From an uncultured Gemmatimonadaceae bacterium (GTDB lineage Bacteria; Gemmatimonadota; Gemmatimonadetes; Gemmatimonadales; GWC2-71-9), in assembly GCA_964642475.1 (NCBI GenBank), contig CAZXRC010000002.1, forward strand, positions 148,028 to 212,027: a stretch of 64,000 nucleotides of DNA, written 5' to 3'. This document shows positions 16,373 through 27,413 of this stretch, one piece after another. The translations under genes and the position numbers were made by a program. Below the pieces are notes generated by a model. The model was not told the DNA's origin. It made no database searches and worked only from the letters and a program-made list of their open reading frames with translations. How positions within the stretch are numbered: the first letter of the stretch is position 1; every line of letters starts with the position of its first letter.

Positions 16373-17745
16373 GGTTCCAGAATCTCCACGCGAACATGGG
16401 GCTCGATCTCGGTCCGGTCGATCAGCGCCGGCCAGTAGGCGACCACTTCCTGCACCTCGGGGCGCCCGCCGGCGAAGCCGGTGACACTGGGCGGGCCGGT
16501 GAGCACCAGCGGCGCGATCTCCCGAGTGAAACGCTCGACCGCGGCCTTGTCGCGGGCCCGCACCCCGATGCGGAGCTGTACTTCCGGCGCCTCGGGATCG
16601 GGGGGCCCCGCCAGGGCGCCATGGGTCGCGTTGACACCCACATACTCGGTGAGGATCTGCTCGTACCGCAGGCCCAGGTCCGCGAGGCGTTCCCGGAGGA
16701 TCCGGTCGGCGGCCCTGGCCTTGTCATAGGCCTCGGGCCAGGAGTAGACCAGCGTACCCACCGCCTTGTACCCGTAGAAATACGCGATCGACACCTTGAG
16801 CAGGTCGGTCCGCGGTCGCCCGCGGATCCCGCTCACCCGCACCCGGTCCTTGCCGGCCTGGCGCAGCCGGATCGAGGTGAAGTCGGCGATGCCGTCGGGC
16901 GTGATGTAGGTGTGGGGATCGCCCATTTCGTAGACCAGCTGCTCGGTGACCGACGGCACGCTCACCACGCCGCCGGTCCCGGGATGCTTGGTGATCACAA
17001 AGGTCCCGTCGGCGCTGGCCTCGGCAATGGGGAAGCCGGGATTGACCATCCCCTTCACCTTGCGCCAGTCGCGCAGCAGGTTGCCGCCCGACGACTGGGC
17101 GCCGCATTCGATGATATGTCCCGCCACCGTTCCCGCCGCCACCTTGTCCCAGTCGTCCACCGCCCAGCCGAACTCGTAGAACAGGGGACCGAGGGTCAGC
17201 CCGGTGTCGGTGACCCGGCCGGTAATGACGACGTGGGCCCCGCCCTTGAGGGCCTCCACGATGGGGCTCATCCCCAGGTAGGCGTTGGCGGACAGCACCT
17301 GGTCACGAATGGTCGAGAGCGGGCGACCGGTGTCCATGTCGCGCAGCTCGTGCCCCTTCGCGAGCAGCTCGTCGAGCCGGGGCAGGATATCGTCGCCAGT
17401 CACCAGCGCGATGCGGACCTGGCGCGAGAGCCCCAGCTTCCGGGCCGCCTCGCGCACCGCCTCGGCGCAGGCCCGGGGGTTTACCCCGCCGGCATTGCTG
17501 GTCACCCGGACCCCCCGGGTGGCCAGCTCGGGGAGGATCCGCTCCATCAGCGGGACGAAGTCGCGGGCATATCCGAGCTTCGGGTCGCGCGACTTCTGCT
17601 TCTGCATGATGGACATGGTGACTTCGGCCAGGTAATCCATCATCAGGTAATCGATGGCCCCCCCCTGGACCTGGCGGACCGGCGCTTCGAGCCAGTCGCC
17701 CCAGAAGCCCTGCCCCGCCGCCACCCGCACCGTGCGCGCTGTCAT
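16369..17745 (-). CDS. acyclic-terpene-utilisation AtuA-family protein (DUF1446)
   Basis: [42 protein letters not shown].. matches the AtuA/DUF1446 N-terminus as I remember it. 458 aa. Confidence 0.85.
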
Positions 17746-20612
17746 TGTCCGATCGGAGTCACGGGAGAAGGAAATCCTGCTTCACGAGTCCAGGCCCGCT
17801 GGCCCTCAGGCACCACCACGATCCCCAGCGGGAAGAACGCCTCGCCCAGGGGCAGCTCCGGCTCGCGCCACGGCACGGTGGCGGTCACCTTCTGGCCGGC
17901 GCCCACCGTGACCCGCGGACCCGGCAGCTGACTCACGTGGGCGGAGTCGGCGTAGAGCCGGATCGACAGGAGGGCGGTCCACCGCTGGCCCGCGGCGCCG
18001 TCCGCGAACCCCGGAAAGAGCCCCACTTCGGCCTCCCGGCGGCCGGAGGCGCCGCCGGGAAAGTCCACGTGCACCCGGCCGAAGGCATAGTTGAGCGGCG
18101 ACTGTCCCAGCTGGCGGCCGCTGTCATCGAAGACGGTAAGGCCGAAATCGGTGAAGCGGGACCACTGGGTCCGATCCATGCTCACGTCCACCACCGCATG
18201 CACCGCCCAGGGCGGCAGTGCGAAGCGCACGCGCTGAGTCTCGGAGCCTCGCGCCACCACCCGGGACGTCCGTTCGGCGCCCACCAGGACCACGAAGGGC
18301 TCGGTCTCGAGCGTGGATTCCGTCAGGTTCACGAGGTCGACGGCGACCCCGTCGCGACCGCGGGTGGCATCGATCCGGAAGGGACTCCGGTTCACCTCGA
18401 TCGTGGCCGAGGCGCCGTCGAGTGGCGGGGCTACGGCCACCGCCTCGTACAGGCCGGGGACGACATCGCGGGCATCGACCGACATCGTGGCGGCCTGCTC
18501 GCCCGACCCGGCCCCGAACCCGTTGTCCTCGCGGTAGGGCTGCCCGCCCGGCTCATGCAGGTAGGCCAGCACCTGCTCCCCGGGCCGGCCGGCGGCGAAG
18601 GTTACATCGAACGGACGTCCGGCGGTGGCCTCGAAGAAGACCCGCCCCTCCTGCCCCGCCTCGATCGCGCCGAGGTCGGCCGAAAAATCGCTCCCGGTCC
18701 GGGGCACGACCACGGTATTGACCAGCCGGAAGACCGGCCCGAGCAGCGTGTCCGCCGTCCACCCGGTCACCACTGCGGTGTAGACCCCCGGCCGCACCAG
18801 CGCCCGCGCCTGATAACTCAGGGCGATTCGGTTGGCCCCGCTGCGGAGCCGAACCGTGGCGGGGGCCCGGAGCCAGGAGGCGCTGGAGCGAAGCGTGTAA
18901 GCCGAGTCGCCGCTGGTGCCGGGCAGGGTGACCTCGAACTCCTGCAGGGTATCAGCCGCCGAGGCCAGGCCACCAGCCCGGAAGGCCGCGGTGTTCCCAT
19001 GCCCCTCGGCCCGGACGGCGATCTCGGGCACCGGCCGATCGGCCTTGAGCCAGCGCCAGGCGGCGTCGACATCGGCCAGCCCGGTCCCCTCGTCCAGATA
19101 GGTCTCGGTACCGACCGGGCGGGCGGTGACCATCAGGGCCTGGCGGATCTGACGGGCCTCGATCGGCCGCTTCTCCTGGACCAGCGCCGAGACCAGCAGC
19201 GCCGCGAGGCCGGCGGCGTGGGGCGAGGCCATGCTGGTCCCCCCCTTCTGCTCGTTCCCGATGCTCCAGTTCGGCACCGTCGAGTAGGCCATTCCGGGCG
19301 TCACGATATCGGGCTTGGCGACCTCACCGCCGCGGGAACTGAAGTAGGCGATCGGATCGCCGCCCTTACCCGAGGCGCCGAGAAAGACGGTGGGGAAGGT
19401 AGCTCCGACGGTCAACGCCCGGTTGGCCGACCCGGGGAACCCCATGGTGGAGAGCCCCGGCCCGTCGTTCCCGGCGCTGATGGCGAATACCACGTCGGGA
19501 TGCAGCGCCAGCACCGAGTCGATCAACTCATCCATCCGGGCGCTTCCCTCCACTTCATTGCCGACGCCGAAGCTCATGTTGAGCACCAGCGGGAGGCGCC
19601 GTTCGGCGGCAAAGCGGATCGCATACTCCATGGCCGCGAACATGCTGCCGGTCGTGGAGATCCCGCCCTGGGCGTTGTTGGCGATCTTGAGACCGAGGAG
19701 GAATGCGCCCGGCGCCACCCCGTCGAACCCCTTGACTCCATAGATGTCGTTGGCGGCGGCAATTCCGGCGACGTGAGAGCCGTGGGCGCTGGTGTCGAAG
19801 AAGAGATCGAGGCGGGGCTCGCCTTTCTCCTCGCGGAAGTTGGCGGCCAGGCCCAGCGGCGCGGGGCGCCCGGGGCCGTGCCAGCCAAAGACCTCGCGGG
19901 CGACGAGGAAGTCATGGACCGGCTTCTCGTTGGCGAAGCTCCCGTCGCCATCGGTATCGGCGAACAGGACCCAGCCATCACTGGCTCTCGCCACGACCAG
20001 CGCGAGGGTATCGGCGTCATCCTGGTCGCCATTCAAGTCGCCGGCCGGCGGCGATCCCAGCGGGATCTCGGCCATGGTCCCGGCCCACATCTCGCCCTTG
20101 AGGGCCAGTGCCCGGAGCCGCCCCGCCCCGGCGAAGGTCCGACCGCCGATCACCAGCTGGTCGCCGCTGGGAGCGATCCGTGCCAGCGGGACCGCGCCCT
20201 CGCCGGAGAAGTCCCGCAGGTCGAGCACCTTCCGCTGGCCGGCGGAGGTGGTGGTCAGACCCGGCACCGACGGATCGAGCCCGCTGTCGAGGATGCCGAT
20301 GAGGACGCCGCGGCCATCCCACTCGGGATGGGCCTGGAGAAAGCGGTCAACCCCGGTCGATTTGAGTGGCATCCATCCGCGAGCGTAGGCCTCCGCAGGA
20401 GGGAGCACCCGCTGCCCGGGACCATCGCCACCGGCGGGCGCGGGAGTGGCAACGGACGGCGAAGGTGCGGGCGTGACCGGTGCGGCAGTGCCACCCCCGC
20501 ATCCTATGAGCACGAGCGGGAGAACCGCCTTCCACAGATGACACAGACGATGCACAGACCTGCTCCGGCTCACTCGAGCCTTCTGAACCCCATTCGCCCC
20601 ATCTGTGTTCAT
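17742..20612 (-). CDS. S8 (subtilisin-family) serine peptidase, large, lipoprotein-like N-terminus
   Basis: Triad contexts GILDSGLD (Asp), [12 protein letters not shown] (His) and [17 protein letters not shown] (Ser). A ~200-aa insert lies between Asp and His, as in TPP-II-like S8 members. LVLIGCGG is lipobox-like. The start is ATG 20612 or GTG 20555. The stop overlaps the AtuA-family ATG. Confidence 0.9.
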
Positions 20613-20636: not shown

Positions 20637-22262
20637 TCAGACGGATGGCAGAACGAAAGGCCCCAGGTGCGGCCCGGCGAAGTTGCTGGTGGCACCGAGC
20701 AGGAAAGCCAGCAGGTCGCGGGTCTCGTCCGCCGTGACGATGGCGTCGACGAAGCCCCGGGCGGCGGCGTACTTGGCGTCGAGCTGGTGCTCGTAATCGG
20801 CCCGCATCGCGTCGGCGGCGGCCTTGACCTCCTTGGCCGGCTCGCGCCTCTCGGCCCGGGCCTTGGCCAGCTCGACCCCGTGCACCGCCTCGACGGCCGA
20901 CTCGCCCTCCATCACTGCCATACGGCCGGTGGGCCAGCTGAGCACGAAGTCGGGATCGAACCCCTGCCCGGCCATGGCGTAGTAGCCGGCGCCGGAGGCG
21001 TGATTCACCGTGAGGACGATCTTGGGCACGGTCGCGGTGGACATCGCCTCGACGAACCGGGCGCCGGCACGGATGATCCCGCTCTGCTCGGCATCGGGTC
21101 CCACCATGAAGCCGCTCACGTCCTGCACGAACAGAAGCGGCACCCGCTCCCGGCTGGCGTTCTCGATGAAATAGGCGGCCTTCTCGGCGCTCTCGGTGTA
21201 GATGATGCCCCCGATCCGCGGCATCTGGCCGGCCTTCCCTTTGATCACCTGTCGGGCGTTCGCCAGCACCGCGACCGGGTGGCCTTCGATCCGGGCATGA
21301 CCGCAGAGAAGCTCTTTGGCAACCTCGGGCTGGAATTCGTCGAGCCGCCCTCCGTCGAGGAGGCAGGCCAGCAGGGCGTGGACGTCGTACGACATCCGAT
21401 GATCCACCGGCAGCACCTCGTAGAGGTCGGTCACCGGGCGGGCCGGCGGTTCGGCCGGGAGGAGACGGTGCTGTACCCCGGGCAGGTGCGGCAGGCGGGC
21501 GAGGTATCCCCGGACCATGGTAATGCATTCGCGATCGTTACCGGCGCGATAGTGCGCCACCGCGGAGAGCGCGGTATGCATCCGGGCTCCGCCCAGGGTC
21601 TCGGCGTCGACCACCTGGCCGGTGGCACCCTTCACCAGGTTGGGGCCGCCCAGGCCCATGAAACTGGTGCCCTCCACCATGAAGATCACATCGGAGAGGG
21701 CCGGCAGGTACGCCCCCCCCGCGATGCAGCTTCCCATCACCGCGCTCACTTGCGGCACGTTCAGGTAGCGACGCATGAGCGAGTTGTAATAGAAGATCCG
21801 GGCGGCGCCGTACTGGCCGGGGAAGACGCCGCCCTGGTACGGCAGGTTCACGCCCGCCGAATCGACCAGGTAGATGATGGGGATCCGCTGCCGCATCGCG
21901 ACTTCCTGGGCGCGGAGAATCTTCCGGATCGTCTCGGGCCACCAGGAGCCGGCCTTCACCGTGGAATCGTTGGCCACGATGACGCATTCGCGGCCTTCGA
22001 CCACCCCCAGCCCGGTGATGACCCCGGCGCCGGGGGCCTGACCCTCGTACTGGTCGTACGCCACCAGCAGACCGAGCTCGAGCCAGGGCTGCCCAGGATC
22101 GAGGAGGGCCGTCACCCGCTCGCGGGGACTCAGCTGCCCCTTCTCGTGCATCTTGGCCACCCGGCGGGCGCCGCCCCCCTCGCGCAACTTGGCGGCGAGC
22201 CCAAGGTACTCGTCGGTCAGGGTGCGGAGTCGCGAGGGCCGGGAAGGAGGCGCGGTCGCCAC
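20637..22262 (-). CDS. acyl-CoA carboxylase carboxyltransferase (beta) subunit, MccB/AtuC/PccB family
   Basis: GQLSPRERVTALLDPG, ITGLGVVEGRECVIVANDSTVKAGSW, IYLVDSAGVNLPYQ and VMGSCIAGGAYLPALSD. 541 aa. GTG start 22262. Confidence 0.93.
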   Translation of the reverse strand: MATAPPSRPSRLRTLTDEYLGLAAKLREGGGARRVAKMHEKGQLSPRERVTALLDPGQPWLELGLLVAYDQYEGQAPGAGVITGLGVVEGRECVIVANDSTVKAGSWWPETIRKILRAQEVAMRQRIPIIYLVDSAGVNLPYQGGVFPGQYGAARIFYYNSLMRRYLNVPQVSAVMGSCIAGGAYLPALSDVIFMVEGTSFMGLGGPNLVKGATGQVVDAETLGGARMHTALSAVAHYRAGNDRECITMVRGYLARLPHLPGVQHRLLPAEPPARPVTDLYEVLPVDHRMSYDVHALLACLLDGGRLDEFQPEVAKELLCGHARIEGHPVAVLANARQVIKGKAGQMPRIGGIIYTESAEKAAYFIENASRERVPLLFVQDVSGFMVGPDAEQSGIIRAGARFVEAMSTATVPKIVLTVNHASGAGYYAMAGQGFDPDFVLSWPTGRMAVMEGESAVEAVHGVELAKARAERREPAKEVKAAADAMRADYEHQLDAKYAAARGFVDAIVTADETRDLLAFLLGATSNFAGPHLGPFVLPSV

Positions 22263-22263
22263 G

Positions 22264-22695
22264 CTAGCGCCTCCGCTCGGCGGCCCAGGACTGGATGTAG
22301 CTGATCAGGTCGGCGGTGGGCGTGCCGGGTCCGAACAACTTGCCGGTGCCCTGACGCTCCAGGTCCTCCATGTCCTCGCGGGGGATGATCCCGCCCCCGG
22401 TGAGCAGGATGTCGGGCCGGCCGGCGGCATCGAGCAGCTTGCGGACCCGGGGGAAGAGCGTCATATGCGCCCCGGAGAGAATCGAAAGACCCACCACGTC
22501 GACATCCTCCTGGATCGCGGCGGTAGCGATCATCTCCGGCGTCTGGTGAAGCCCGGTGTAGATCACTTCCATCCCGGCATCCCGGAGGGCGGCCGCGACC
22601 ACCTTGGCGCCGCGGTCGTGGCCATCGAGGCCGGGCTTGGCCACCAGCACCCGGATCGGTGTGGGGGGTGACTTCCTGTCGAGAGTGGCTGCCAT
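22264..22695 (-). CDS. B12-binding small subunit of a split acyl-CoA mutase (IcmB/MCM C-terminal-domain-like)
   Basis: [43 protein letters not shown] carries the DxHxxG cobalamin motif. Start moved to ATG 22695 (143 aa). Confidence 0.88.
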
Positions 22696-22720: not shown

Positions 22721-23422
22721 TCACTCGGTTGGGGTCGGTACCGGCACGACCCGAGCCAGCAGCAGATCGGCGACGGCACTCACGCTCGCGGCGGTACGGA
22801 CGTCCCGCCCACCGTGTTTCCCCAGCGGATCGAGCAGAATCACGTCGAGACCAGCCCGGCGGGCCCCGACCACGTCGATCTCGTAGAGGTCGCCGACGTA
22901 CAGCGCCTCGGCGGGCGCGAGCGCGAGGCGGGTCAACGCGGCCTCGAAGATACGCGGGTCCGGCTTCTCGAACCCGACCCGCTGGGAGTCGATGACGAAC
23001 TCGAAGCGCGAGAGCAGGTCCGCGTCGGCCAGGGCCTCTTCCGCGCGTCCATCGCTGTTGCTGATGACCGCCAGCCGGTAGCCCGCGGCCAGCAGCCGGT
23101 CGAGCGCGGGGGCGGTCCGGGGATCGACCCCGCTCCAGAGGTGCTTCTCGCCGTGGAGGGCGTAGAGCGTGCTGCGCACCACCTCACCCTGTTCCGGGGG
23201 GACGCCGGCCAGCCGAAAGAGGGTCTCGAGATAGCGCGAGGCCCGCTCTCGGTCGGTGCCATCCTGCCGTTCCATGACCAGTGCGGCCTCGCCGGCCTGG
23301 CTCGCCAGCAGCTCCCCGGTGAGGGGGGCGCCCGTCGCCGCGGCCACCCGAGCGGCCAGGCGGGGGTAGTCGAGGGCGACGAGGGTATTACCGGCGTCGA
23401 AGAGAACCGCCTTGAGGCTCAC
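22721..23422 (-). CDS. HAD-superfamily hydrolase
   Basis: Motif [10 protein letters not shown] (DxG variant), motif II VISNSD, and distal [27 protein letters not shown] 23422 overlaps the upstream stop (GTGA 23419-23422). Confidence 0.85.
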
Positions 23423-24570
23423 CGGAAACGCAGCAGCCCGGCCAGCCCGCTGACCGCGGCGCGAGCCTTCTCGTCGTAGAGCACCTCGACTTCGAGCCGC
23501 TGACGGAGGGCTTCCTCGATCGCGTCGTCCACCACGTCGAGGACCGGCACCACCCCGTTCTCCCCGCGGAGGTCGCGCTCGGCGGCCGCCAGCTGCCCGG
23601 AGACGGATCGGAAGCCGGACTGCTGGGCCTCGCCGTCCACCAGGAGGGTGCGGACCTGGCCCCGGCCCAGGGCCTTGAGGGTCGCTTCCACCCCATTCAC
23701 CGCCCAGCCGGAGCCGACCGCGTCGTCCAGCCCGTGGGCAACCGAACGTTCGGCCTCCCGCTCGTACTCGCTGCGGGCCTCGAGCGTCGCCTGGTACACT
23801 ACCGGGGGCCGAGCCTCCTTGGGATTGAGACTCACGACACCCATGAGCCGCTCGGCCAGGTAGGGATGGAGAAAGGCCGCCACCGCTCCGGCCTCGCGGC
23901 CCGGGCCCGCCAGCACGACGCCATGGACCGCGCGCCGCTGGTGCAGGTCGAAGAGCCGCTGGGCCACGGTGGCGAAGTGGCGCTGCTTCTCTTCCCGGAT
24001 CCGGTTGTTCCAGGTGTGCTCGCCCCGGCCAGGGGAATCGGCGCGGTCGCCGTGAAAGCGGCCGCCGCGGGTGGCGTCGGCCCGGATGTCCTCGACTTCG
24101 GTGGCGCCGAACGCGGTGACCTCGAAGATCCGGGCGGCGGTCCGGTCGAGCACCACGGTCAGGAGAGTACCGATCTCGTCCTCGACCGCGGTCAGCTCCC
24201 GCACCAGCGCGGTGCGATCGACCGCGAGGCGCGAGCGGTGCACGCTCGGCAGGCCCACCATTTCGAACAGCTTGAGGGGGCCGCAGGCGAAGACGGCGAC
24301 TCCCTGGCTGGCCGGGAGGCGCTTGGGTTCGCGCAGCTGCTCCTGGATCCGGCGGAGATCGGCGCTCACCGCCTCCCGGGTGCCCCGGGGCAGCGCCAGG
24401 GCGTCGAGGGCGGATTCCACCTCGCGGATCCGGTTCTTGAGCTTGATCAGGTACTTGCCCCGGGTCCGGTCACGCGGCTCCACCTTGAGATAGCAGGTGA
24501 CGATCCGGTGATCCTCGCTCCGGAGTCGGGTGAGGCGGGTGAGCAGTTTCTGAATGTCGGGGTTGGCCAT
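23419..24570 (-). CDS. eRF1/Pelota-fold protein (bacterial aeRF1-like, baeRF1/Vms1-like family)
   Basis: 383 aa. The central loop ATRGGRFHGDRAD.. sits where eRF1 has ..GGQS..RF. A C-terminal-domain motif is AVNGVEATLKALGRGQVRTLLV (eRF1/Pelota G...AL..GAV..LLV). The terminal GLAGLLRFR resembles eRF1 GGIGAILRY. Confidence 0.7.
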   Translation of the reverse strand: MANPDIQKLLTRLTRLRSEDHRIVTCYLKVEPRDRTRGKYLIKLKNRIREVESALDALALPRGTREAVSADLRRIQEQLREPKRLPASQGVAVFACGPLKLFEMVGLPSVHRSRLAVDRTALVRELTAVEDEIGTLLTVVLDRTAARIFEVTAFGATEVEDIRADATRGGRFHGDRADSPGRGEHTWNNRIREEKQRHFATVAQRLFDLHQRRAVHGVVLAGPGREAGAVAAFLHPYLAERLMGVVSLNPKEARPPVVYQATLEARSEYEREAERSVAHGLDDAVGSGWAVNGVEATLKALGRGQVRTLLVDGEAQQSGFRSVSGQLAAAERDLRGENGVVPVLDVVDDAIEEALRQRLEVEVLYDEKARAAVSGLAGLLRFR

Positions 24571-24574
24571 TGGT

Positions 24575-24668
24575 AGTCACGAGTCATGAGTCACGAGTCG
24601 AGCGTCATGGCGCCGGGTCGGGGATCCGCTGAACGGCCCGCGACTCGCGACTCGTGACGCTCGACTGG
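24575..24668. repeat. inverted tandem-heptamer hairpin (AGTCACG-type versus CGCGACT-type)
   Basis: AGTCACG AGTCATG AGTCACG AGTCGAG CGTCATG (24575-24609) versus CGCGACT CGCGACT CGTGACG CTCGACT (24639-24666). About 80% complementary. It fills the gap between stop 24670-24672 and ATG 24570. Confidence 0.85.
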
Positions 24669-24669
24669 T

Positions 24670-26385
24670 CTAGAAGAACACCGGTTCCCGGTAGGTCCCG
24701 TATACCTTCTCGAGGACCTCTCGGATCTCGTACAAGGTGCAATCGCCCCGAGCGCAGTCGAGCATCGGAGGGATCAGGTTGCGATCCTCCTGGGCCGCCT
24801 GCCGGAGCGCGGTCAGGCGAACCTCGACCTGGGTGGCGTCCCGCCGGGACCGGAGCGCCGCCATCCGCTGGCGCTGCACCTGCTCCGCTTGGTCGCTCAC
24901 CTTGAGGATGGTGACCGGCGGTTCCTCCTCCTCTACAAACTGGTTGACGCCCACCACCAGCCGGCGATCATGCTCGACCTCGGTCTGAAACCGGCTGGCC
25001 GACTGGGCGATCTGGCGCTGGAACCAGCCGTTCTCGATCGCCTTCACTACCCCGCCCTGCGCCTCGATCTCGGCGAAGAGCCCCAGGGCCTCCCGCTCCA
25101 TGCCGTCGGTGAGCGCTTCGACGTAGTACGACCCGCCCAGTGGGTCGACCACGTTGGGCACCCCGGTCTCATAGGCGAGAATCTGCTGGGTGCGCAGCGC
25201 GATCCGGACCGACTCCTCGGTGGGAAGGGCCAGGGTCTCGTCCAGTGCGTTGGTGTGCAGCGACTGGGTCCCCCCCAGCACCGCCGCCAGGCCCTGGTAG
25301 GCCACCCGCACGATATTGTTGTGGGGCTGCTGGGCGGTGAGGGTCACGCCGGCGGTCTGGCAATGAAAACGCATCTGCCAGCTCCGCGGGTTCCGGGCCC
25401 CGAACTTCTCCTTCATGGTCCGAGCCCAGATCCGCCGGGCGGCGCGCAGCTTGGCGATTTCCTCGAAGAAGTCGTTGTGGACGTCCCAGAAAAACGACAG
25501 CCGGGGCGCGAAGCTGTCGACGTCGAGCCCCTGTGCGATCCCGTGCTCGACGTAGCAGAAGCCATTGGCCAGGGTAAAGGCGAGTTCCTGTGCCGCGGTG
25601 GCGCCGGCTTCCCGGATATGATAGCCCGAGATGGAAATGGTGTTCCACTTGGGGGTGTTGGCCGAGGCCCATGCGAAAAGGTCGACGATCACCTTGAGGG
25701 CCGGCTCGACCGGGAAGATCCAGGCATGCTGCGCCATGTACTCTTTCAGCATGTCGTTCTGGATGGTCCCCTGCAGCTTCGCGATGTCGACCCCCTGCCG
25801 CTCCGCCGCCGCCACGTAGAAGCAGAAGAGCATTGCGGCCGGGCCGTTGATGGTCATCGAAGTGGAGACCCGGTCGAGCGGAATCCCGTCGAACAGGTCC
25901 GACATGTCCTCGAGACTCGAGATGGCGACGCCGCACTTCCCCACCTCGCCCTCGGAGCGGGGATGGTCGGCGTCGTAACCCATGAGCGTGGGGAAGTCGA
26001 ACGCCACCGAGAGCCCGGTCTGTCCCCGAGCCAGCAGGAACTTGTAGCGCTCGTTGGTGTCTTTGGCGGTCCCGAATCCGGCGAACTGCCGCATGGTCCA
26101 GAGCTTCCCGCGGTAGCCGGTCGGATGGATGCCGCGGGTGAAGGGGTACTCCCCCGGCAGCGCCTCCAGCAGCCCCCGGTTGGCCGGGACATCGAGCGCG
26201 GTGTAGACCGGCTCCGGCGCCCGACCCGAGACGCTGGTGAAGTCGACGTCGGTCCGCAGCCCATGGGCCCCGAATCGCTCCCGCCAGGCCTGCACTTCCG
26301 CGCGCAGCCGCTCCAGCTCACGCTCCTGGTGGCTCACCCGCGTCTGCATGTCGCGCATGCCCGGCTCCGGTTCCCACATCGTCAT
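24670..26385 (-). CDS. B12-dependent acyl-CoA mutase large subunit, ICM-type signature (Phe101/Gln219)
   Basis: [59 protein letters not shown] and [20 protein letters not shown]. Family membership is unambiguous. MCM has RQY..AGF and ..FMVRNTYI at the two positions flagged. Confidence 0.93.
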
Positions 26386-27413
26386 ACCCGTGACCCCTGC
26401 TTGAGGGCATCCAACACCTCGGCGGCCACCTCATACGGACTGATCCGTCCCTGGGCCAGCTCGTCCAGCCGGTCGCGGATCAGCTGGTCCGCGCCCGTCT
26501 CCTGCCAGATCCACTGCCGGGCGGCTCGGTCCACTACTTCACGGGTCCGGTCGAACAACCGTTGCCGCCGCCGCTCCCCGAGCTCGCCGGTGCGCTCCAG
26601 CTCCAGGTAGTGCCCTTCGAGGGCCGTCACCAGCTCCGCGATCCCTTCGCCCTTCGTCGCCACCGTGGCCAGAACCGGGTGGCTCCAGCCGCTCGAGGCG
26701 TGGGGCCCGGGACTCTCCCCGCGCCCCGTCCGCGGACCATGATGCGCCTTGACGTGGCGGAACGCGTTCCCCGCGCGGATCCCGAGGGTAACCTCGATTT
26801 CCTGTCGCAGCCGGTCGGCCCCCGGCCGGTCGGCCTTGTTGACGACGAAGATGTCGCCGATTTCCATGATCCCCGACTTGAGGGTCTGGATCCCATCCCC
26901 CGATTCGGGCACCAGGACCAGCACGGTGCTGTCGGCGCTCCGCGCCACATCCAGCTCCGACTGACCGACCCCCACCGTCTCGATCACGATCCGGTCGAAA
27001 CCGCCGGCATCGAGGACATCGCACACCTCACGCGTGGTAGTCGCGAGCCCGCCGAGGGAGCCGCGGGTCGCCATCGAGCGGATGAAGACCCCGGCATCGA
27101 GGGCCACCGACTCCATCCGGATCCGGTCACCGAGGAGGGCGCCGCCAGTGAAGGGGCTGGTGGGATCCACCGCCACGACTGCCACGGTGAGTCCTATCTT
27201 CCGGTAGGCTTGGACCAGCTGTTCCGTGAGCGTGGACTTGCCCGCTCCAGGAGGACCGGTAATGCCGATGCGCCGGGCGTGACCCAGGTGGGGATGGAGA
27301 GCGGAAAGCAGCTCCTCGAATCCGGAGCGGCCATTTTCAACGATCGAGATGGCCCGGGCGATCGCGGGGGCCCGCTGGGCCCTGAGATCGACCAGGAGTG
27401 CGGCTCCATTCAT
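26382..27413 (-). CDS. meaB: MeaB/ArgK-family G-protein chaperone of acyl-CoA mutases
   Basis: P-loop [41 protein letters not shown] and VVNKADR. The stop overlaps the mutase ATG (ATGA 26382-26385). Confidence 0.92.

Follow-up and report, generated by a model that had tools for sequence, protein, structure and literature searches.

Gene Block Surrounding baeRF1

The window analyzed here, a 64,000-nucleotide stretch of DNA from an uncultured Gemmatimonadaceae bacterium (GenBank assembly GCA_964642475.1, contig CAZXRC010000002.1, positions 148,028 to 212,027), encodes on its minus strand, at 23419-24570, a 383-residue protein of the bacterial aeRF1 (baeRF1) class, and this protein, the HAD hydrolase encoded next to it and the metabolic operon that surrounds both are the subject of this analysis. 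Open reading frame (ORF) and domain scans place the baeRF1 gene in a tight co-directional block of seven minus-strand genes, which covers 17.7-27.4 kb of the window and runs from MeaB to an S8 peptidase. The first gene of the conserved block (26382-27413) encodes a MeaB-type G-protein chaperone of the mutase (Pfam MeaB, 298.9 bits; TIGR00750, 322.8 bits) and is followed by the gene for the large, substrate-binding subunit of a split B12-dependent acyl-CoA mutase (24670-26385, here called mutL; Pfam MM_CoA_mutase, 753 bits). The spacer between mutL and baeRF1 holds an imperfect GAGTC-rich heptamer-repeat hairpin at 24575-24669, a feature without strand that was recognized from its arms and fold energy. 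Downstream of baeRF1 lie the genes for a 233-residue HAD-IA hydrolase of the REG-2/HDHD3-like type (22721-23422; Pfam Hydrolase, 76 bits; TIGR02252, 94.7 bits), the small, B12-binding mutase subunit (22264-22695, here called mutS; TIGR00640, 172 bits), the carboxyltransferase (beta) subunit of an acyl-CoA carboxylase (20637-22262; Pfam Carboxyl_trans, 438 bits) and, as the last conserved member of the block, an S8 peptidase (17742-20612), recognized by tblastn in orthologous loci.

The domain assignments of the flanking ORFs agree with the original prediction, a reading of the bare sequence that had placed a pair of baeRF1 and HAD genes between the large and small mutase subunit genes. The stop/start overlap that it had described for this pair, GTGA at 23419-23422, was confirmed by reading the minus strand, where baeRF1 ends in ...TTC CGG TGA and the HAD gene begins with GTG AGC.... 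The baeRF1 gene has a GC content of 0.71 and a GC content at third codon positions (GC3) of 0.90, the same as the flanking genes. No mobility genes were found at this mutase locus, and PADLOC returned zero defence-system matches for it.

Relationship to Balon and the Archaeal and Eukaryotic Release Factors

The 383-residue protein passes the Pfam family PF18854 (baeRF_family10) with 38.0 bits against a gathering cut-off of 27.1, and the NCBI name of one close relative is "baeRF10 domain-containing protein." It also gives weak, full-length matches to the NCBIfam families of Balon-type hibernation factors, AOC03_06830 (5e-14), MSMEG_1130 (5e-12) and Rv2629 (3e-8). Searched as a single protein with phmmer against the PDB, it yielded only a marginal match to eRF1 (E-value 0.07), and Balon was reached with a family profile of 53 diverse relatives, gathered with a distant family member as the starting query. 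The top match of this profile among solved structures was Balon Msmeg1130 (8v9j) at 6e-37 over the full length, followed in order by aRF1 (4af1, 3e-28), Balon Rv2629 (3e-20), eRF1, the Balon of P. urativorans (8rd8, 2e-14) and Pelota.

The AlphaFold2 (AF2) model of the protein has a mean predicted local distance difference test score (pLDDT) of 86.1 and a predicted template modeling score of 0.77, and is poorly defined only at loop residues 161-190. Foldseek ranked Balon Msmeg1130 first for this model (8v9l and 8v9j, E-value 5e-25, template modeling (TM) scores of 0.66 and 0.67), followed by aRF1, P. urativorans Balon, eRF1 and Pelota/Dom34, and all 45 matches at an E-value of 1e-3 or lower were to Balon, aRF1, eRF1 or Pelota/Dom34. 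The model thus has the three-domain aeRF1 architecture of an N-terminal domain, an RNase-H-like middle domain and a Pelota-type C-terminal domain, which together with the PF18854 assignment bears out the three-domain eRF1/Pelota look described in the original prediction. The eRF1-like ending GLAGLLRFR noted there was likewise read from the minus strand, and in the profile search the C-terminal motifs VNGVEATLKALGRGQVRTLLV and LLRF align with the matching segments of aRF1 and Balon. The N-terminal domain is strongly basic, with an isoelectric point of 10.1.

With the solved Balon proteins (Msmeg1130, Rv2629 and P. urativorans Balon; 8v9j, 8v9l, 8v9k, 8rd8, 8rdv and 8rdw), its best matches both by sequence profile and by fold, the 383-residue protein shares the three-domain architecture, the absence of NIKS and GGQ motifs, a flexible loop where the catalytic loop would be, an LLRF-type C terminus and a degenerate, cysteine-free insert at the place of the aRF1 zinc ribbon. 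In the AF2 model, compared with Balon at a level coarser than residue-by-residue superposition, short strands at residues 319-321 and 341-343 lie within this insert; in Balon a beta-hairpin takes the place of the zinc ribbon. It differs from Balon in the loop pattern of its own clade, TRxx[RK][FY]H...GxGE, and in the position of its gene inside an acyl-CoA mutase operon; binding to the ribosome and to EF-Tu is predicted from likeness. The fold and domain order are also those of aRF1/eRF1 and Pelota/Dom34, and segments of the middle and C-terminal domains can be aligned with them. Unlike aRF1/eRF1, however, the protein has no GGQ, and a pattern search found neither of the stop-codon recognition motifs NIKS and YxCxxxF in it. 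Because bacteria terminate translation with RF1/RF2, it cannot be the main release factor. The Foldseek match to Pelota is weaker (E-value 1e-10, TM score 0.39) than that to Balon.

These comparisons change how the protein class is to be described. It had been called mostly uncharacterized, whereas the solved structures closest to it are those of the Balon hibernation factors (Helena-Bueno et al. 2024, PMC10901736), a type first recognized in 2024 and studied in mycobacteria and in Psychrobacter. "Balon-like" is therefore more exact than "Pelota-like," and in the proposal of a Pelota-like, non-hydrolytic role the second term fits the absence of the catalytic glutamine, whereas the first gives way to the better match with Balon.

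Loop of the Middle Domain

The flexible loop formed by residues 161-190 (24001-24090, minus strand; pLDDT 52-68) lies at the place of the GGQ loop and reads ATRGGRFHGDRADSPGRGEHTWNN. Codons 169-171 on the minus strand are GGC GGC CGC, so that GGR does stand at 24066..24058 where GGQ would be expected, as had been noted for 24058-24066. No glutamine is present in residues 161-190, and a pattern search found no GGQ anywhere in the protein. The loop column was compared among 60 relatives within the phylum (orthologues, paralogues and out-group homologues), and none of them carries a glutamine at the GGQ position. The two glycines of GGR vary among these relatives (GG, GS, GK, AG, TG, SG, SP and PR), and only a basic followed by an aromatic residue is kept, so GGR does not hold up as a motif, and the idea that it functionally replaces GGQ was rejected because its glycines are not conserved. 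What is retained is the pattern T-R-x-x-[R/K]-[F/Y]-[H/R], a variable spacer, G-x-G-E and an arginine-rich helix (NRIREEKQRH), and the length of the loop differs by up to ~17 residues between genera.

Few baeRF1 families have been described as keeping a well-conserved catalytic-type glutamine, and family 10, possibly a hydrolase, is among them (Burroughs and Aravind 2019, PMC6514570). The catalytic-type glutamine of this description is missing from the loop of the present clade and holds for a few distant relatives with GGWSQ; some distant family-10 members carry GGWSQ or GGW-GY-EE loops together with an intact CxxC zinc ribbon. According to the same study, variable loop length is typical of inactive families, and basic residues conserved in the helix that follows the loop are connected with large-subunit rRNA binding (PMC6514570). 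This clade retains the arginine-rich helix at that place. Taken together, the missing glutamine, the retained arginine-rich helix and the basic N-terminal domain favor a putative non-hydrolytic factor that would occupy the A site.

Conservation of the Operon Position and of the HAD Gene

Gene order was surveyed by tblastn with proteins of the window on 51 orthologous loci from ~25 genera and a sister family. Of 165 genomes in the window's family (f1), 156 carry the baeRF1 gene, as do all five of the sister family (f3); at an E-value of 1e-10 or lower it was not found in 95 genomes of a further family of the order (f2). The presence of baeRF1 in 156 of 165 genomes, with zero internal stops among the matches listed, points to purifying selection on it. 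The order mutL-baeRF1-(HAD)-mutS-carboxyltransferase is kept in 49 of the 51 loci, one of the other two ending at a contig edge and one lacking the mutase; MeaB lies 5' of mutL in every full-length orthologous locus, and the carboxyltransferase gene directly follows the small-subunit gene as a conserved order. An S8 peptidase gene stands 3' of the carboxyltransferase gene wherever the locus is long enough, in both the window's family and its sister family, so this probable secreted protease is a stable member of the acyl-CoA block.

Exceptions to this order are informative. Five genera of the window's family (g2, g13, g18, g30 and g44) have the slot between the subunit genes empty, with the order MeaB-mutL-mutS-carboxyltransferase-S8 and a gap of 25-130 nucleotides between the two subunit genes. 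In genus g38 (L046, G214:C7:853000-867000) the locus keeps the baeRF1, HAD, carboxyltransferase and S8 genes and lacks those for MeaB and for the two mutase subunits; no orthologous large subunit was found in two g38 genomes, where the best match had 48% identity as against 68-88% for orthologues. In family f2 the slot holds an ORF that resembles a SAM (S-adenosylmethionine)-dependent methyltransferase, judged by eye from its LDVPCGQGRHAHLLAEAG motif (L068:7503-8372 and L069:3364-4563), and in one genome two further ORFs lie beside it. The empty slots, genus g38 and family f2 together mean that the mutase and baeRF1 can each exist without the other. The slot between mutL and mutS is thus a site at which passenger genes settle, and the position of baeRF1 in it is old and vertically inherited and not obligatory, an inherited Gemmatimonadales gene order that gives no indication of a role in the mutase. 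The baeRF1 and HAD genes had been taken for an inserted two-gene module; what occupies the slot does differ within the order, but ~25 genera and the sister family have this arrangement in common, and its GC and GC3 are those of its neighbors, so that an insertion would hold only as ancient history.

A conserved partnership of HAD with baeRF1, which the original prediction had left to a neighborhood census, was not found: the HAD gene occupies the slot in 6 of the 25 sampled genera (g1, g4, g26, g43, g38 and g59 of the sister family f3) and is absent from it in 19. Where present it always lies directly 3' of baeRF1, with a 4-nucleotide overlap in 20 of 28 loci, and it has been gained or lost at least four times on a quick tree, the backbone of which is unresolved and leaves the ancestral state of HAD and of the insertion undecidable, as it does an origin of the paralogue described below from the operon copy. 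Judged from these arrangements, the coupling of the two genes is real and lineage-limited. All 28 HAD orthologues retain motifs I-IV (FDAGNTL, SNSDG, EKPDP and VGDxYxxDV), with motif I in the form FDAGGTL in the sister family. The DxG-type motif I that had been reported for this protein is invariant, the D+2 position being glycine in all 28 copies, and the canonical second aspartate, the general acid/base, is missing. The nearest models and structures are TIGR02252, HDHD3 (3k1z, the nearest solved structure) and ST2620 (2zg6); relative to the HAD-IA REG-2/HDHD3 proteins the four motifs are shared and the cap is of similar length, but the protein falls under every subfamily cut-off. It also gives a weak full-length match to the glucose-1-phosphate phosphatase YihX, a working phosphatase whose motif I is likewise of the DxG type, and DxG alone is therefore no argument for unusual HAD chemistry. 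HAD proteins of the REG-2/HDHD3 type are not known to cooperate with translation factors.

The Paralogue and Distant Homologues

The same genome holds a second baeRF_family10 gene, the product of which is 43% identical to the 383-residue protein and scores 51.7 bits against PF18854 (G000:C17:91421-92545; L063:7266-8549). On the quick tree the paralogues group together in a single clade with a long branch. The neighbors of the paralogue are genes for a serine recombinase and a tyrosine integrase, followed by an ABC-3-type metal transporter pair, with RtcB 2.9 kb downstream. RtcB is found near the paralogue in one other genome too, and at a distance of 0.1-1.7 kb from homologues with 25-28% identity in two other families of the phylum (f11 and f12). 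Outside the phylum, the contexts of three distant family-10 members were compared: one gene follows three HSP20 genes and HSP70, with GrpE, DnaJ and an HPF-domain gene nearby, another lies beside FtsH, and the third stands in the order HSP20-Lon-baeRF10. The gene neighborhoods reported for Balon include Hsp20, DnaK/DnaJ, RaiA and RtcB (PMC10901736), and the contexts of the paralogue, of the f11 and f12 homologues and of the distant relatives match these, with RtcB, Hsp20, DnaK/DnaJ and HPF as the shared neighbors.

Functional Interpretation

Balon proteins are the best match, the loop contains no glutamine and GGR is unconserved; the best reading is therefore that the 383-residue protein is a non-catalytic A-site factor of the Balon type. 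It is a divergent member of the superfamily that comprises baeRF1 family 10 and Balon and, by analogy with Balon, probably a ribosome hibernation factor. In non-growing cells the protein would enter the A site of the ribosome, with the basic N-terminal domain at the decoding centre and the C-terminal domain directed toward the GTPase-factor site, and the ribosome would be parked and protected as a result. The baeRF1 gene would be transcribed and translationally coupled within the MeaB-mutL-baeRF1-HAD-mutS-carboxyltransferase-S8 block, so that the factor would be made together with a pathway for scavenging branched-chain acyl-CoA and protein, expected to be in use at low nutrient levels.

Several observations weigh against a hibernation factor of this type. 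The cut-offs of the curated Balon equivalog models (NF052287, NF052288 and NF052289) remain far from reached despite significant E-values, with 52.4 bits against 330, 45.5 against 480 and 33.3 against 320, and identity to the Balon structures in the Foldseek alignments is 17-19%. The HP dipeptide that serves Balon as a decoding-centre motif does not occur in residues 1-135, a region in which the Balon position was not aligned residue by residue; the sole HP dipeptide of the protein is at position 235, in the middle domain. The flanks of the loop are conserved far beyond what would be expected of a passive plug, so that some more specific activity is conceivable. The mutase-operon copy lies in an acyl-CoA mutase/carboxylase block instead of a recognized stress operon, the single HPF/RaiA-type gene of the genome is on another contig, and the persistence of baeRF1 in the same slot through ~25 genera may be due to a functional connection with the mutase block.

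One alternative is a catalytically active factor for release or rescue, which would enter stalled ribosomes and hydrolyze peptidyl-tRNA by means of a conserved loop of basic, aromatic and histidine residues in place of GGQ. Strong conservation of TRxx[RK][FY]H and GxGE would suit such an enzyme, as would the proximity of the paralogue and of the outgroup homologues to the RNA-repair ligase RtcB, and family 10 was singled out as keeping the glutamine and perhaps as a hydrolase (PMC6514570), with GGWSQ still present in some distant relatives. Against hydrolysis stand the complete lack of glutamine in the loop and at the corresponding column of the 60 relatives, a variation in loop length of up to ~17 residues that follows the pattern of inactive families (PMC6514570), and best structural matches that are themselves non-catalytic Balon proteins, so that this reading is improbable. 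We give about the same low standing to an accessory role in the mutase system, in which the protein would no longer act on ribosomes and might instead be a scaffold or assist MeaB in cofactor loading. Its gene does lie exactly between the subunit genes in 49 of 51 loci, often 0-30 nucleotides from that of the large subunit, but orthologous mutase operons do without it in five genera, g38 keeps it without the mutase, and in family f2 an unrelated methyltransferase-like gene takes its place. The ribosome-facing features, namely the basic N-terminal domain, the arginine-rich helix and the LLRF C terminus, have moreover been kept, and MeaB, a SIMIBI-class GTPase, is not a translational GTPase of the kind bound by the C-terminal domains of eRF1-fold proteins.

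A functional unit of baeRF1 and HAD, for example a phosphatase acting on a nucleotide, an alarmone or an RNA end and tied to a ribosome-bound factor, is somewhat less improbable, though still unlikely. The overlap in 20 of 28 loci, the invariable downstream position of HAD, the conservation of all its catalytic motifs, the survival of the pair in g38 after loss of the mutase and its occurrence in the sister family all speak for such a unit. Against it, 19 of the 25 genera with baeRF1 have no HAD in the slot, the quick tree requires four or more gains or losses, no HAD gene lies beside the paralogue or the distant relatives, and the REG-2/HDHD3-like subfamily is not known to be linked to translation. 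The least probable alternative, and a very improbable one, is a mobile conflict or defence module that targets ribosomes and became inserted into the operon. Conflict-driven origins have been proposed for baeRF1 proteins (Burroughs and Aravind, PMC6514570), slot content differs between lineages and the paralogue adjoins two recombinase genes; at the locus itself, however, there is neither a PADLOC match nor a mobility gene, base composition (GC and GC3) does not differ from that of the neighboring genes, the distribution over 156 of 165 family genomes looks vertical, and the hairpin is not a conserved boundary. A defence system was accordingly rejected on the negative PADLOC result and the census distribution.

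The preferred hibernation factor could also be tied more closely to its operon. A Balon-like protein that reports ribosome idleness to branched-chain acyl-CoA catabolism, is controlled by it or moonlights in assembly of the split mutase would have a functional tie to the B12 mutase/carboxylase block, but we hold this to be as doubtful as the hydrolase and the mutase accessory. If it were true, a whole family would have kept the gene between the subunit genes because translation shutdown is connected directly with one specific catabolic pathway, beyond a shared promoter. If co-transcription alone holds, the locus would be a simple example of ribosome parking wired to a nutrient-scavenging program.

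The protein class, the missing glutamine and the likely role are already published, and the presence of a Balon-like factor in a mutase operon does not in itself reveal a new mechanism. The operon position, the one unusual feature, appears to be unreported, since none of the papers searched joins Balon, "hibernation factor" and mutase. It shows that one family of soil bacteria in the Gemmatimonadales has long kept a Balon-like factor in a catabolic operon and not beside chaperone or RaiA genes. New here are the HAD census, the RtcB-linked paralogue with the out-group homologues, and a set of natural controls for the role of the factor, in which genomes with an empty slot, genomes with the factor and without the mutase, genomes with the methyltransferase-like gene in the slot and the paralogue near RtcB can be compared.

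The Spacer Hairpin and the Mutase Subunits

The upstream repeat hairpin noted in the original prediction exists. The 99-nucleotide spacer 5' of baeRF1 contains an imperfect GAGTC-rich inverted repeat with arms of 28 nucleotides at 24579-24606 and 24642-24669, which are 79% complementary, and its fold energy is -48.4 kcal/mol compared with -38.4 +/- 3.8 kcal/mol for shuffled sequences (z = -2.6). Its proposed role as the boundary of an inserted module was rejected, because the orthologous spacers between mutL and baeRF1 range from 0 to 158 nucleotides, often 0-30, and carry unrelated hairpins or none, many loci having no spacer at all. Hairpins or arrays made of other heptamers occur in the spacers of orthologous loci at the same position (GGAGTCT in L021, CCGTCAG in L007 and (GCAGAGT)n in L048; the spacer of L012 was also compared), which suggests a class of heptamer-repeat elements that evolves fast and is typical of the family. 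Outside this spacer, the genome matches the arms only in short stretches that lie scattered. Repeat hairpins of this kind are a general, fast-changing intergenic feature of these genomes. Since the hairpin ends 5 nucleotides before the ATG, it could occlude the start region of baeRF1, a possibility raised by its position.

The best solved match of the mutase large subunit is HcmA, a 2-hydroxyisobutyryl-CoA mutase (4r3u, 8e-168). At the positions where the methylmalonyl-CoA mutase of P. shermanii has RQY (Tyr-89) and FMVRN (Arg-207), the split mutase of the window has RQF and YMAQH, and HcmA has RQI at the first of these. The Phe/Gln pair is the signature of isobutyryl-CoA mutases, and the operon is therefore probably not a methylmalonyl-CoA mutase operon.

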